Shown here: one piece after another, positions 6,559 to 10,200 of the stretch
How the letters are laid out: each line of letters opens with the position of its first letter
Numbering within the stretch: position 1 is the first letter of the stretch
DNA from: an uncultured Pirellulales bacterium
GTDB taxonomy: Bacteria; Planctomycetota; Phycisphaerae; Sedimentisphaerales; SM23-30
DNA length: 64,000 nucleotides
Assembly (NCBI GenBank): GCA_964482555.1
Contig: CAYZXY010000001.1
Span: 5,915-69,914, forward strand
Direction: 5' to 3'
Translations under genes and position numbers: made by a program
Notes under the pieces: generated by a model
Database searches by the model: none
What the model saw: the letters and a program-made list of their open reading frames with translations, nothing else
Told to the model about the DNA's origin: nothing

Positions 6559-9500
6559 TTATTCCAGATCCGCTAGATTCTTCTTCACGCTCGCCAACTG
6601 CTCCTTGAGCTGGGCCAGCCGTTCCCGCTCCCGCTCGACCACTTCCGGTTTCGCCCGGCTGATAAAATTCTCATTTGCCAGTTTCTTCTCGCTCCCGGCA
6701 ATGCCTTTAGTCAACTCTTCCTGCTGCTTCTCCAATCGTTTCTTCTCCGCTGCCGGATCGATAACATCATCGACATAGATTTCCATCTCCTCGCTGACCG
6801 CCGTTGCCGCCCGCAAAGGCTTCTCGCAATTCGGACCAGCGACAAACGCGCTCGATGCCGTCATATTGCATATCACATGCTGCTGCTCGTTCAGCAGACT
6901 CGCCAGTGACTCATGGGTTCTTACCGACACATTCAGCTTCTTCTTCGGCGGAACCTGGTATTGAGTCCGGACGTCGCGAATCGCGCGAATCGTCGCCTGC
7001 AGGATGCCCATCTGCTGTTCCGCTTCTGCGTCGTAAAACTCCGACAGACGCTTCGGCCACTCCGCCGTAATCAACAACTCCGAACTCTCCAGTTTCGCCA
7101 GATTGCCCAGCCCGCGACCCGAACACATCTTATGCAGCTGTTGATAAATCCCTTCCGTAATAAACGGCAGGAAAGGATGCAGCAGCCGCAGACAATTATC
7201 CAGTACAAACGCCAGCAACCGCTGAGCCGTCGGCTTCAACTCCTCGTCCCGCATCCGCGGCTTGATCAGTTCCAGATACCAGTCGCACAACTCATTCCAG
7301 AAAAAACGATAAAGCTGGTTGATCGGTTCACTGAATTTGAATTCCTCCAATTGCGTCGTAACCTTGTCAATTGTATCCGCCAGCCGTGACAAAATCCACT
7401 GGTCTTCCAGGGTCATGTGCGATGGCTCGAAAGGTCCGGTTGGCGGATCTTCCAGATTTCCCAATGCAAACCGCGATGCATTCCAAAGCTTGTTACAAAA
7501 ATTCCGCCCGATGTCGAACTTGGGACTCGTATTCACCACCCGCCCGTCCGGCAGCGCCATTTCCTCCACCGGCATCCGCACATCCTGCGTCTGCGTCGTC
7601 ATGCTCGCCAGCGCAAAACGCATCGCGTCCGCCCCGTGGCTGTCGATCGCCACCAGCGGATCGATCCCGTTGCCCAGGCTCTTGCTCATCTTGCGTCCCT
7701 GCCCGTCCTGAATCATCGCATGAATAAACACATCCTTAAACGGAATATCCCCCGCGCAATACTGCCCCATCATCACCATCCGCGACACCCACAGCGTGAT
7801 AATCTCCCGTGCCGTACACAGCACGCTGCCCGGATAATAATGCTTCATCAACGCCTCGCCGTCAACCCCTTCTTCCGGCCAGCCCAACGTACTGAACGGC
7901 CACAACGCCGATGAAAACCACGTATCCAATACATCCGAATCCCGCTGCCAGCCGTCCGCCTCCAATTTCTGCTCAATATCAATATGTTCCTTGCCCACAC
8001 ACACAAAGGTCTTAGCACCTTCATCGGTGTCTATGCTAAAAGATTTGACATGGTCGCCATATTCAGAAAAAACATATCCGCTCCCCGCCTTCGACCACAC
8101 CGGAATCTGATGCCCCCACCACAACTGACGACTGATCGGCCAGTCCCGCAGATTCTCCAGCCACGTCTGATACGTCTTCGCGTACCGCTCCGGAATGAAC
8201 CGCAACCGCCCGTCCAGCAGCGGCTTCAGAGCCAGGCCCGCCAGCGAATTCACCGGCACATCCGTCCCCTCGATCGTACCGCCGCCGATGGTCTCCGCCA
8301 GATGCTCGATCGGCTTTTTCACCGCGATATACCACTGATCCGACAAATACGGCTCAATCGGTACATGACTGCGATAGCTATGCCCCACATCATGGGTATA
8401 ATCTCGCACCTTCTCCAGCAAATCCTCCTGCCGGAACCACTCAACAATCGCTTCACGGGCCTCAAACCGGTCCATCCCCAGAAAGGCCTCCGCCTCACTA
8501 TCTTCGCCCCTGGCGTCCTCCCAGCCATATTTGTCGCTGATCGAGCCATCCGGAGCCATCACATTAATCACCGGCAAACCATGCCGCAGCCCGATTGCCC
8601 AGTCATCCGGATCGTGCGCCGGGGTGACTTTCAAAAATCCCGTCGAATATTTCGCCTTCTCCTCCGAACTCTCCGGGTCCGGCAGTACCACATGCTCATC
8701 CGCGATAATCGGAATCAACCGCCCTACGATCGGCAGCCGTACCATCTTGCCCACCAGCGCCCCCGCCCGCGGATCGCGCGGGTTCATCGCCACCGCCGTA
8801 TCACCCAGCATCGTCTCCGGCCGCGTCGTCGCTACAGTTACGTGTGTTATTGTATCGCAGGCATCTTGCCCCCCCCATAATTCATCCCGGTCAAAACAAC
8901 CTATCCATTCCCATTCCTTCAATCCCGCTTTTTCCGGATTCTCCAATACATAAGCTACTTGATTCTCAAAATCTGATTCATCACATATCAAATGATCATG
9001 ATATTCAACCATCCAAAGATTACCGGTACGATTCAATACTTTATTTATCTCATCAGCTGAAAAAGACTTCCAGGAATGGACTATTTCACTAAGTTCATTA
9101 TCTCCCAACGGCCGAACGACAACATGAACATGATTAGGCATAATAACCCAAGCAACCAATTCATACCGGTTCCCATGAAAATACAATAATGCATCTTGCA
9201 CGATTTTCGCTGCTTTTGAATCTTTTAAAACACACTCGCCATGACCTGCATTTAAATAAGACTCAATTTTATCTGAGAACAAATGCTTCAATTCCATCAC
9301 TTCATGAATTGTTAGTTCTCGATTTTGCTGTTTCGCTCTATCAATAATATCCTTACGTTCCTGCTGCCATTGTTCTGACACATCAGCCGGCACAGAATCC
9401 CCTAAGCGAAAAGTAACTGCATAAGTCGCACCTTCCCTAATCCAATGCGGAATATACGCCCCTCTCCGTTTGGATATCCTCTGTACCACGGGCATCTTGC

Positions 9501-10200
9501 CCATGTTTTCTCTTTCCTCATTATTTTCCACGGGCTGGAAGCCCGTGTTACACTCCACCGCCTCCACCAGCGGATACTTCATGTACCAGAAATGACCTTG
9601 CACCGTCTCGTATTCCACTTCATCATCCGCCAGCACCGTCTGTGTCGCCGGATCCCAGTTCACCAGCCGCTTGCCCCGATAAATCAATCCATCCCGAAAC
9701 AGATTGAAAAAATTCGCCCGCACAGCCTTTGCGCACACTTCATCCATCGTGAACCGCACTCGCTCCCAGTCGCACGAACATCCCATTTTCTTAAGCTGCT
9801 CGATAATCTTTGCCTCATACTCATCCTTCCACGCCTGTACCCGTTCCACAAACTCATCCCGCTCGAAATCCGTTCGTCGCTTGCCTTCTTCCGCCAATAT
9901 CCGCTTCTCCACGACCGTCTGCGTCGCAATCCCCGCATGGTCCGTCCCCGGCATCCACAGCGTGTGATACCCCTGCATCCGCCGCCAGCGTATCAGAATA
10001 TCCTGCAATGTATTGTTCAGCGCATGACCCAGATGCAGCGCCGCCGTCACATTCGGCGGAGGGATAACAATGGTATAGGTCGGACCAGAATCCGCCCCAT
10101 CGGGAATGCCGGCATGGAAAGCATTCGCCCGGTTCCATATCTCATTGGCGTTTTCTTCGATCTCTTGCGGTGCGTATAACTTGGGCATCTCATCCAGCAT
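6559..10200 (-). CDS. valS: valine--tRNA ligase carrying an in-frame insertion of ~235 codons
   Basis: 1213-aa uninterrupted ORF. Class I motifs HLGHA (HIGH) and KMSKS, editing motif ATTRPETMLGD, and a C-terminal coiled coil. Residues ~217-450 are foreign (see the mobile_element feature). Confidence 0.95.
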   Translation of the reverse strand: MLDEMPKLYAPQEIEENANEIWNRANAFHAGIPDGADSGPTYTIVIPPPNVTAALHLGHALNNTLQDILIRWRRMQGYHTLWMPGTDHAGIATQTVVEKRILAEEGKRRTDFERDEFVERVQAWKDEYEAKIIEQLKKMGCSCDWERVRFTMDEVCAKAVRANFFNLFRDGLIYRGKRLVNWDPATQTVLADDEVEYETVQGHFWYMKYPLVEAVECNTGFQPVENNEERENMGKMPVVQRISKRRGAYIPHWIREGATYAVTFRLGDSVPADVSEQWQQERKDIIDRAKQQNRELTIHEVMELKHLFSDKIESYLNAGHGECVLKDSKAAKIVQDALLYFHGNRYELVAWVIMPNHVHVVVRPLGDNELSEIVHSWKSFSADEINKVLNRTGNLWMVEYHDHLICDESDFENQVAYVLENPEKAGLKEWEWIGCFDRDELWGGQDACDTITHVTVATTRPETMLGDTAVAMNPRDPRAGALVGKMVRLPIVGRLIPIIADEHVVLPDPESSEEKAKYSTGFLKVTPAHDPDDWAIGLRHGLPVINVMAPDGSISDKYGWEDARGEDSEAEAFLGMDRFEAREAIVEWFRQEDLLEKVRDYTHDVGHSYRSHVPIEPYLSDQWYIAVKKPIEHLAETIGGGTIEGTDVPVNSLAGLALKPLLDGRLRFIPERYAKTYQTWLENLRDWPISRQLWWGHQIPVWSKAGSGYVFSEYGDHVKSFSIDTDEGAKTFVCVGKEHIDIEQKLEADGWQRDSDVLDTWFSSALWPFSTLGWPEEGVDGEALMKHYYPGSVLCTAREIITLWVSRMVMMGQYCAGDIPFKDVFIHAMIQDGQGRKMSKSLGNGIDPLVAIDSHGADAMRFALASMTTQTQDVRMPVEEMALPDGRVVNTSPKFDIGRNFCNKLWNASRFALGNLEDPPTGPFEPSHMTLEDQWILSRLADTIDKVTTQLEEFKFSEPINQLYRFFWNELCDWYLELIKPRMRDEELKPTAQRLLAFVLDNCLRLLHPFLPFITEGIYQQLHKMCSGRGLGNLAKLESSELLITAEWPKRLSEFYDAEAEQQMGILQATIRAIRDVRTQYQVPPKKKLNVSVRTHESLASLLNEQQHVICNMTASSAFVAGPNCEKPLRAATAVSEEMEIYVDDVIDPAAEKKRLEKQQEELTKGIAGSEKKLANENFISRAKPEVVERERERLAQLKEQLASVKKNLADLE
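8857..8874. repeat. REP-like hairpin (imperfect) at the 3' border of the embedded RayT gene
   Basis: The plus strand reads GCAGGCA-TCT-TGCCCCCC. The 14-mer GCAGGCATCTTGCC is identical to 61988-62001. The 12-mer GGCATCTTGCCC (8860-8871) repeats directly at 9491-9502. Confidence 0.6.
9487..9505. repeat. REP-like hairpin overlapping the internal ATG of the embedded RayT gene
   Basis: CACGGGCA-TCT-TGCCCATG. The same arms occur at 46032-46049 (CACGGGCA-AGC-TGCCCAT). Confidence 0.6.
9529..9547. repeat. perfect 8-bp hairpin at the 5' border of the insertion
   Basis: CACGGGCT-GGA-AGCCCGTG. It shares the CACGGGC arm with the 9487 and 46032 hairpins and lies inside the valS reading frame (NTGFQPVEN). 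Confidence 0.55.

Follow-up and report, generated by a model that had tools for sequence, protein, structure and literature searches.

A RAYT domain and probable REP hairpins within the valS reading frame of a planctomycete

Repetitive extragenic palindromic sequences (REPs) and the REP-associated tyrosine transposases (RAYTs) that accompany them have been described as the E. coli REPs and bacterial interspersed mosaic elements (BIMEs), as the Pseudomonas REPINs and as the GTAG super-family (PMC2817692, PMC3479197, PMC3733652, PMC8266576). The E. coli enzyme, TnpA_REP, is monomeric, recognises a hairpin together with a 5' GTAG tetranucleotide, and cleaves and transfers single strands (PMC3479197, PMC8266576). 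A RAYT with its cognate GTAG-tagged REPs forms the architecture termed a REPtron (PMC3733652, PMC3479197). Here we analyse a 64,000-nucleotide stretch of DNA from an uncultured Planctomycetota bacterium (GenBank assembly GCA_964482555.1, contig CAYZXY010000001.1, positions 5,915 to 69,914; hereafter the window), in which the valine--tRNA ligase (ValRS) gene valS contains a RAYT domain, RayT, bordered by hairpins. We propose that these hairpins, called REPs below, belong to a REPtron lying in-frame inside valS, and we regard this explanation as probable. The locus has in common with the known systems an HUH/Y1 enzyme whose nearest relative is TnpA_REP, a position of the gene between inverted cognate hairpins, a GT-initiated foot of 4 nt located 5' of a 6–9-bp stem, co-evolution of enzyme and stem, dispersed and mainly extragenic copies with inverted doublets, and vertical inheritance. 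Unlike them, the valS RAYT is not free-standing, having no stop codon and no conserved start across orthologues; together with its REPs it would be translated from within an essential gene, and the foot is GTA[ACT] or GTTA rather than GTAG. REP families typically exceed 100 copies per genome, and the window counts given here cover 64 kb of genome.

Palindromes within genes are also known. REPs occur inside tnpA_REP genes, as reported in a study that excluded 'unexpectedly long proteins', taking them for fusions or errors (PMC6006769), and REPs alone occur inside open reading frames (ORFs) (PMC3733652). Such intragenic REPs and the Rickettsia palindromic elements (RPEs; PMC3733652 and its references) resemble the valS element in that the palindromes are tolerated in-frame, often in replication or repair genes and tRNA synthetases, encode short peptides and may be grouped as several units. 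They consist of REPs alone and span 20–80 amino acids, whereas valS carries a transposase of ~200 residues between its REPs, conserved over a whole order. The IS200/IS605 insertion sequences (IS608, ISDra2) share the HUH/Y1 fold and provide the second-best structural matches, and recognition of a hairpin with a guide tetranucleotide, followed by single-strand DNA chemistry, may by analogy be common to them and the valS RayT. In contrast to these elements, nothing suggests a multi-copy insertion sequence whose left and right ends are defined. TnpB was not seen beside the RayT either, although no systematic search for such a partner was made. Inteins and IStrons likewise reside in essential housekeeping genes (DnaE, aminoacyl-tRNA synthetases, helicases) and persist vertically at a fixed site for long periods with a functional host, but the valS element has no Hint domain, conserved splice junctions or ribozyme, and it is apparently tolerated through translation as an extra loop domain and not through splicing. 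The notable and apparently undescribed part is the in-frame embedding of a REPtron: in the full-text literature searched, whose coverage leaves out most subscription journals, we came across neither an in-frame embedded RAYT nor a whole REPtron translated within host genes.

The RayT insert of valS and its bordering hairpins

The element and its parts are as follows.

6559–10200, minus strand: valS, an uninterrupted ORF of 1213 amino acids identified with Pfam, which holds the whole element in-frame
8851–9552, minus strand: the insert relative to insert-free ValRS, codons C217–T450, 702 nt, in the order REP-REP-RayT-REP
8899–9504, minus strand: RayT domain (TnpA_REP-like Y1/HUH), M233–G434, recognised by family matches, structure profile and AlphaFold2 (AF2) fold
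9529–9551, minus strand: REP-a, outer upstream, GTAA CACGGGCT TCC AGCCCGTG; reads NTGFQPV
9483–9505, plus strand: REP-b, inner upstream and inverted relative to REP-a, GTAC CACGGGCA TCT TGCCCATG; reads MGKMPVV
8852–8874, plus strand: REP-c, downstream, GTAT CGCAGGCA TCT TGCCCCCC; reads GGQDACDT; distal arm degenerate

The valS product contains the Pfam families tRNA-synt_1, Anticodon_1 and Val_tRNA-synt_C together with an internal Y1_Tnp match (E 1.3e-7). Alignment to the Thermus thermophilus (Tth) ValRS structure 1GAX revealed that residues 211–453 replace a 6-residue β-hairpin loop (Tth 203–210), which places the insertion at the entrance or start of the CP1 editing domain. RayT carries the HUH histidines H357 (9132–9130) and H359 (9126–9124), the catalytic residue Tyr417 (8952–8950) and the motifs PNHVHVV and AYVLENP, and all 16 of the 16 family-invariant residues are present. 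It passes the NCBIfam REP_Tyr_transpos model narrowly (80.3 bits, cutoff 80); identity as an IS200/IS605 TnpA was rejected, the score against transpos_IS200 being 22.9 bits for a cutoff of 55. When a profile of RayT and 35 homologues was compared with solved structures, the best match was E. coli TnpA_REP (4ER8, E 6e-6), with ISDra2 at 2e-3. The AF2 model of RayT has a mean confidence (pLDDT) of 90.9 and retrieved 4ER8 as the top Foldseek match (E 1.9e-8), followed by IS200/IS605 transposases, while its REP-encoded ends are of low confidence (51–77), as expected of linkers. The insert is thus an intact RAYT that is nearest to TnpA_REP. RayT lacks a stop codon and the REPs are stop-free in the frame used; with no stop codon in the insert, the ribosome would have to read REP–RayT–REP within ValRS.

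A preliminary description of the window had pointed out six GGCA-N3-TGCC hairpins, three at the borders of the insert and three in intergenic positions, and all six lie where it placed them. Hairpin 9529–9547, CACGGGCT-GGA-AGCCCGTG with the GGA loop read on the plus strand, forms a perfect 8-bp stem. Hairpin 9487–9505 has seven Watson-Crick pairs and one T·G, and covers two minus-strand ATG codons, M233 (9504–9502) and M236 (9495–9493). Hairpins are present on both sides of the insert, as had been claimed, but the downstream one at 8857–8874 (GCAGGCA-TCT-TGCCCCCC) is degenerate, with pairing limited to the 4 bp of GGCA/TGCC. The claim that a RAYT is bracketed by its REPs also holds: REP-a, with its foot 5' in the gene sense, and REP-b lie upstream, where they form a doublet with a 23-nt spacer, and the degenerate REP-c is inverted downstream, in the orientation typical of downstream REPs. 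The foot, proximal arm and loop of REP-c agree with those of dispersed copies at 27618 and 61983.

We could define neither element ends nor a target duplication. The two copies of the 12-nt direct repeat GGCATCTTGCCC, at 8860–8871 and within REP-b at 9491–9502, lie at a distance of 631 nt, a number not divisible by 3, and excision of the 700 nt from foot to foot would introduce a stop codon. The sister sequence without the insert, described below, differs from the window by more than a clean excision.

Conservation of the insert among ValRS orthologues

To place the insert in time, the best 120 clusters from a protein search with the full-length query were considered. In 119 of these 120 the protein is 1176–1371 residues long; most have a precomputed PF01797 match and about ten list none. 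A protein identical to that of the window over its whole length (P0121) comes from an independent assembly, the named sources include Anaerobaca lacustris, Sedimentisphaerales and Phycisphaerales, and the ValRS of the cultured Anaerobaca lacustris (P0127) has the same architecture. RayT occupies the identical ValRS site in loci L001 and L005–L007, whose identity to the window is similar in RayT (56–59%) and in the C-terminal part of the host (60–65%). In L001 (3736–9230) the valS-RayT gene is split into several gene calls and rho is split as well, a pattern typical of long-read assemblies rich in indels; the 301-residue P0003 is a fragment of this broken locus and no separate gene.

Across 54 aligned insert-bearing ValRS proteins, H357, H359, Y417 and the other family-invariant residues are retained without exception (54/54), and mean column conservation is 0.72 in RayT compared with 0.83–0.87 in the host part. 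On either side of RayT the linkers consist of successive REP translations, always in one register: upstream they read G[VIF]xP, and downstream GQDA (50 occurrences) or GRDA (36). Depending on the orthologue, a linker comprises 1 to ~7 REPs, so that REP-encoded linkers grow and shrink in-frame, as also seen in proteins P0124, P0136 and P0147; downstream of RayT, L005 carries some seven REPs in tandem (~10290–10480) with RGQDGRDT-type repeats, and other orthologues have 1–3. A methionine lies near the RayT N-terminus in just 12 of the 54 ValRS-embedded copies, and a conserved internal start for separate RayT expression was accordingly discarded.

The insert is old and ancestral to the whole Phycisphaerae/Sedimentisphaerales ValRS clade. 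Recent acquisition, hinted at by the low GC content of the insert, is contradicted by its presence at the same site throughout the clade. The preliminary description had concluded that the insert 'is, or recently was' part of a functional REP/RAYT system; its identity as REP/RAYT is supported, but with the insert in 119 of the best 120 clusters it is no recent arrival.

The sole insert-free ValRS among the best 120 clusters, P0240 (987 residues; L085, 10001–12964), was compared by means of an identity matrix and UPGMA (average-linkage) clustering of host-only columns. It is the closest relative of the window ValRS by this measure, with 75.9% identity against ~71% or less for the others. Its insertion site reads VEAVE-IDGQQ-IEHVTV, encoded by GAT GGG CAA CAA ATC, and it retains GGGCAA in the frame and position of the proximal part of the downstream REP of the window. 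This retained hexanucleotide suggests that P0240 lost the insert secondarily and kept a scar, which falls short of proof. The 22.7-kb contig of P0240 contains no GGC[AT]-N3-[AT]GCC motif.

REPs around RayT homologues and their dispersal

We scanned contigs with the RayT alignment and obtained 80 RayT loci, or 81 including the window, from Planctomycetota, Verrucomicrobiota, Acidobacteriota, Ignavibacteriales, Chloroflexota and others. REP-like hairpins lie beside nearly all of these 80 closest homologues; their stem sequences vary from locus to locus while their shape is constant. Within 260 nt of the 81 RayT genes there are 220 perfect G+C-rich hairpins with a 3-nt loop, and 169 of the 220 have the oriented loop TCC (111) or TCT (58). 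When units were anchored on the loop, most had a GT-initiated tetranucleotide 8 nt before it, GTGG (30) and GTAG (25) being the commonest. Over the 81 loci, 68 units are upstream with the foot 5' in the gene sense and 76 are downstream and inverted, and the other two classes number 35 and 41.

Covariation was assessed in ten aligned REPs, namely six window units and the orthologous first REP of L001 and L005–L007. In this set 93.8% of cells are paired and both-side changes occur in 5 of 8 pairs, a level reached in 0 of 500 shuffles, whereas slid controls gave 28–45% pairing; the REPs were chosen by hairpin search, so that pairing is partly by construction and the compensatory changes between orthologues are the informative part. 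Such changes are observed directly in REP-a, whose orthologues in L001 and L005–L007 differ by compensatory pairs.

Outside valS, the window contains four further units.

27618–27640, minus strand: dispersed intergenic REP, GTTA CGCAGGCA TCC TGCCTGCC; between ORFs 26841–27575 and 27793–28713
46032–46054, minus strand: dispersed intergenic REP, GTAT TATGGGCA GCT TGCCCGTG; between ORFs 44643–45944 and 46171–47586
61983–62005, plus strand: dispersed REP-like hairpin, intergenic, whose foot lacks GT, ATAT TGCAGGCA TCT TGCCTGCA
53692–53714, plus strand: candidate intragenic REP, GTAA CAGCGGCA GCT TGCCGTTG; in the 1410-residue ORF 51725–55954 (minus strand), reads NGKLPLL

The preliminary description was accurate on several details of these copies: the hairpins at 27619, 46032 and 61987 each lie between stop-to-stop ORFs, the 14-mer at 8857–8870 in REP-c is identical to that at 61988–62001, and the arms at 9487 and 46032 are identical. 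Hairpin 27619–27635 has a perfect 7-bp stem and 61987–62005 a perfect 8-bp stem. The 46032–46054 unit has six Watson-Crick and two G·T pairs, with five Watson-Crick pairs and a wobble extension in hairpin 46032–46049. The 53692–53714 stem has seven Watson-Crick pairs and one G·T; this unit may be an in-frame intragenic REP, its membership being tentative. Six of the seven window units have a foot beginning with GT exactly 8 nt before the loop, the exception being ATAT, and foot direction matches the direction of the TCY loop in every foot-tagged window copy. The GGCA-N3-TGCC motif originally taken as the unit is an enriched core; the functional unit includes the foot as well, with a G+C-rich stem of 8 bp closed by a TCY loop.

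Enrichment in the window was measured against shuffled sequence. GGCA-N3-TGCC occurs 7 times against 1.39 expected, a count reached in 0 of 100 shuffles, and GGCWTCYWGCC 6 times against 0.19 expected, one of the six (25858) being no palindrome. A GTNN foot with an 8-bp stem and a [T/G]CY loop was found 5 times against 0.2 expected, with a maximum of 2 in 100 shuffles. Perfect hairpins in general (stem of at least 6 bp, 3-nt loop) number 31 compared with 17.9 in shuffles; because this general excess is just ~1.7-fold, the signal is specific to the motif and not to hairpins as such. When units were strictly required to have a GT[AG]N foot, a TCY loop and six or more of the 8 pairs, 2 units are observed for 0.08 expected, and these are the two upstream border units; detection of the dispersed copies requires a relaxed foot and loop.

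The excess of hairpins overall would suit the view that these are chance palindromes of 4–8 bp, which are common, or terminators or operators, within an insert that is a recent disruption, a pseudogene or an assembly artefact. The 61987 hairpin is terminator-like on the minus strand and the composition of the insert looks foreign. We nevertheless consider this view hardly credible, given the 25–30-fold enrichment of the specific motif, the conserved foot and consistent loop orientation, the same architecture at 80 independent RayT loci, the intact ORF, and the occurrence of the identical protein in an independent assembly and of the insert in nearly every related ValRS. The terminator reading in particular was set aside: 61987 alone is weakly terminator-like, and a canonical terminator (61911–61933) already lies just upstream, 54 nt before the 61983 unit.

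Dispersal was also seen beyond the window. In 943 kb of sequence flanking the 80 loci, 66 hairpins have the same inner stem as the RayT-flanking REPs, where we estimate that well under one would be expected by chance. The exact 17-mer GCAGGCATCYTGCCTGC, of the type found at 27619 and 61987, occurs in at least 120 metagenome stretches. Among the matches listed, the foot on the TCY strand is GGAG, GTGG or GTAG in 65 of 93, several 17-mers form inverted doublets 20–100 nt apart, and 17 of 94 (18%) lie deep in ORFs of at least 300 residues compared with 60% of all positions. A search of 80 metagenome stretches with the 17-mer (499 kb) found a RayT homologue in none. This 17-nt hairpin type behaves as a dispersed, mostly extragenic repeat. 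Neither a frequency predicted from composition nor an equal frequency in coding regions, the two outcomes that the preliminary description had set against its REP reading, describes what was found. Its central suggestion of a RAYT with cognate REPs, as opposed to a chance likeness, is borne out by the family scores, the 4ER8 fold, the flanking REPs, the compensatory stems and this extragenic repeat. At the place of the E. coli-type GTAG foot, the family has GTGG/GTAG and the metagenome copies GGAG/GTGG/GTAG, while the window units have GTA[ACT]/GTTA and in one case ATAT, so that the window units are no more than candidate members of the GTAG-tagged super-family.

RayT in other host genes and a proposed explanation

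The valS insertion is not isolated. RayT lies in-frame within stop-to-stop ORFs of 420–1487 residues at 42 of the 80 loci, a fraction that does not generalise since the sampling started from an embedded query and favours its relatives, and the host protein was identified for 39. Clustering of the flanks gave 19 host groups. The hosts recognised by Pfam, often with domains on both sides of RayT, are class I aminoacyl-tRNA synthetases (ValRS, LeuRS), DnaE, GcpE/IspG, MetH, CarB, PdxA, FabA, a menaquinone enzyme, an adenosine-deaminase-like protein, HsdR, N6/N4 and Eco57I methylases, helicases and DUF1156, and protein-search fragments added Sua5 and NadE. Each embedded copy has its own REP stems; one metagenome-assembled genome has two insertions with different REPs, in an aminoacyl-tRNA synthetase (L032) and in CarB (L049).

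Annotation is affected by this arrangement. RayT-bearing ValRS proteins are now labelled plainly as 'valine--tRNA ligase', and fragments have seeded wrong names: the short RayT proteins or fragments P0020, P0024, P0038, P0059 and P0066 carry the name 'menaquinone-specific isochorismate synthase' or the name 'type I restriction enzyme R subunit/putative DNA methylase', probably through annotation carried over from host-RayT fusions.

A host range of DnaE, aminoacyl-tRNA synthetases, helicases and methylases recalls that of inteins and group I/II introns, and, with hairpins on both sides of the insert, could indicate that mature ValRS lacks the insert, which would have been taken out as an intron-like RNA, by protein splicing or by proteolysis, the hairpins serving as processing signals. 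This is very unlikely in our assessment. No Rfam family reached its gathering score anywhere in the window, and the Pfam scan of the 1213-residue protein found no Hint or intein family at E≤0.01. The junction peptides are variable REP translations without conserved splice motifs, and the element is in-frame and stop-free in at least 54 ValRS orthologues and at 39 loci in other identified hosts.

The explanation that we favour, a REPtron within valS, would operate as follows. The gene would be read as one polypeptide in the order ValRS(N)-REP peptides-RayT-REP peptide-ValRS(C); translation as an internal ValRS domain is preferred because removal at the RNA level would not require an in-frame, stop-free state. 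RayT would then hang on REP-encoded linkers from the β-hairpin loop that leads into the CP1 editing domain. By analogy with E. coli TnpA_REP, the domain may bind folded single-stranded REPs through their stem-loop and 5' foot, nick them and rejoin them, and a single-stranded GTAACACGGGCTTCCAGCCCGTG-type REP would be the expected substrate of the RayT domain or of full-length ValRS. Such binding, nicking and rejoining would maintain the flanking REPs and would explain both the turnover of REPs in the linkers and the dispersed copies. The arrangement would have arisen once, in an ancestor of Sedimentisphaerales-like Phycisphaerae, with vertical inheritance since. We infer a rationale of lock-in, by which an essential gene would tolerate only exact in-frame loss, and residence in valS would couple the expression of RayT to that of valS.

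Several findings weigh against this explanation. The dispersed copies in the window are few, three to four in 63 kb, and each is off in one feature. Positions 3 and 4 of the window feet (GTAA, GTAC, GTAT and GTTA) are A/T-rich, whereas the commonest feet in the family are GTGG and GTAG; in E. coli all four foot bases are needed for cleavage (PMC3479197). REP-c is a half-decayed unit. The ±10-kb flanks of the ValRS-type loci L005–L007 contain no dispersed same-stem copies, and REP mobilisation in the ValRS-type clade may be weak or extinct. The GC content of the insert is 0.41 compared with 0.56 in the rest of the ORF, and GC at third codon positions (GC3) is 0.36 compared with 0.69; RayT GC3 is below host GC3 in 37 of 42 embedded loci (mean difference −0.10), of which the window is the extreme, and so low a GC3 is unexplained by simple ancient vertical descent. 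The window RayT also has C where at least 94% of orthologues have R, and H for Y elsewhere. On the same side stand two steps of the scheme itself: translation through the insert, which we infer from the conservation of frame and the lack of stop codons, and enzymatic activity on these REPs, which would follow from the analogy with E. coli. Decay was considered as well, but the window RayT shows no clear evidence of it. This RayT violates highly conserved positions 4 times (median 1, maximum 5), against a corresponding 24 versus 4 in the host part, which is equally long-branched.

The scarcity and imperfection of the window's dispersed copies, their absence from the L005–L007 flanks, the degenerate REP-c and the clade-wide vertical inheritance are all compatible with an exapted RayT, which would have an old accessory function in ValRS or another host function without REP mobilisation. 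The hairpins would then be relics that code for linkers, and the intergenic look-alikes would be unrelated or dead. RAYTs are in addition generally held to be domesticated and vertically inherited (PMC8266576, bioRxiv 10.1101/2022.05.22.493013). We consider exaptation unlikely, though less so than the removal or chance views. Compensatory double substitutions keep the stems paired, which the coding of a linker alone would not require, and the variation from 1 to ~7 REPs per linker implies ongoing REP turnover. The catalytic His/His/Tyr set is invariant in all 54 aligned proteins, and the dispersed copies of the window keep both the feet and the direction of the loop.

With the REPtron explanation, a broader proposal can be framed, for and against which we see the case as evenly balanced: that a RAYT lineage persists in-frame in essential and restriction-modification genes as a translated domain on REP-encoded linkers. 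Its hosts would be ValRS, LeuRS, DnaE, IspG, MetH, CarB, PdxA, NadE, Sua5, helicases, methylases and HsdR, in Planctomycetota, Verrucomicrobiota, Acidobacteriota, Chloroflexota and other phyla. Such a lineage would be a non-splicing counterpart of inteins, in which the host gene protects and expresses the element and a housekeeping enzyme carries an active single-strand DNA nuclease/transferase. Residence of RAYTs in ValRS and ~20 other host families would offer a concrete and testable answer, through lock-in and coupled expression, to the long persistence and expression of single-copy RAYTs. It would also show REPs doubling as protein linkers, and a gene derived from a mobile element driving the insertion of domains into core enzymes. 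Proteomics and biochemistry are feasible in the cultured Anaerobaca lacustris, which has a ValRS of the same architecture.

A separate palindrome was noted in the window. ATACCC-(TTT/AAA)-GGGTAT occurs exactly at 22536–22550, 25197–25211, 43616–43630 and 44539–44553, and with one mismatch at 10765 and 34370, so that four exact and two one-mismatch copies compare with 0.08 expected, and each lies just upstream of an ORF start. A second palindrome, CCCGGC-N3-GCCGGG, is located at 22514 and 43638, 7–8 nt from the first. The ATACCC palindrome has the appearance of a shared operator or promoter element and seems to have no connection with the REPs.

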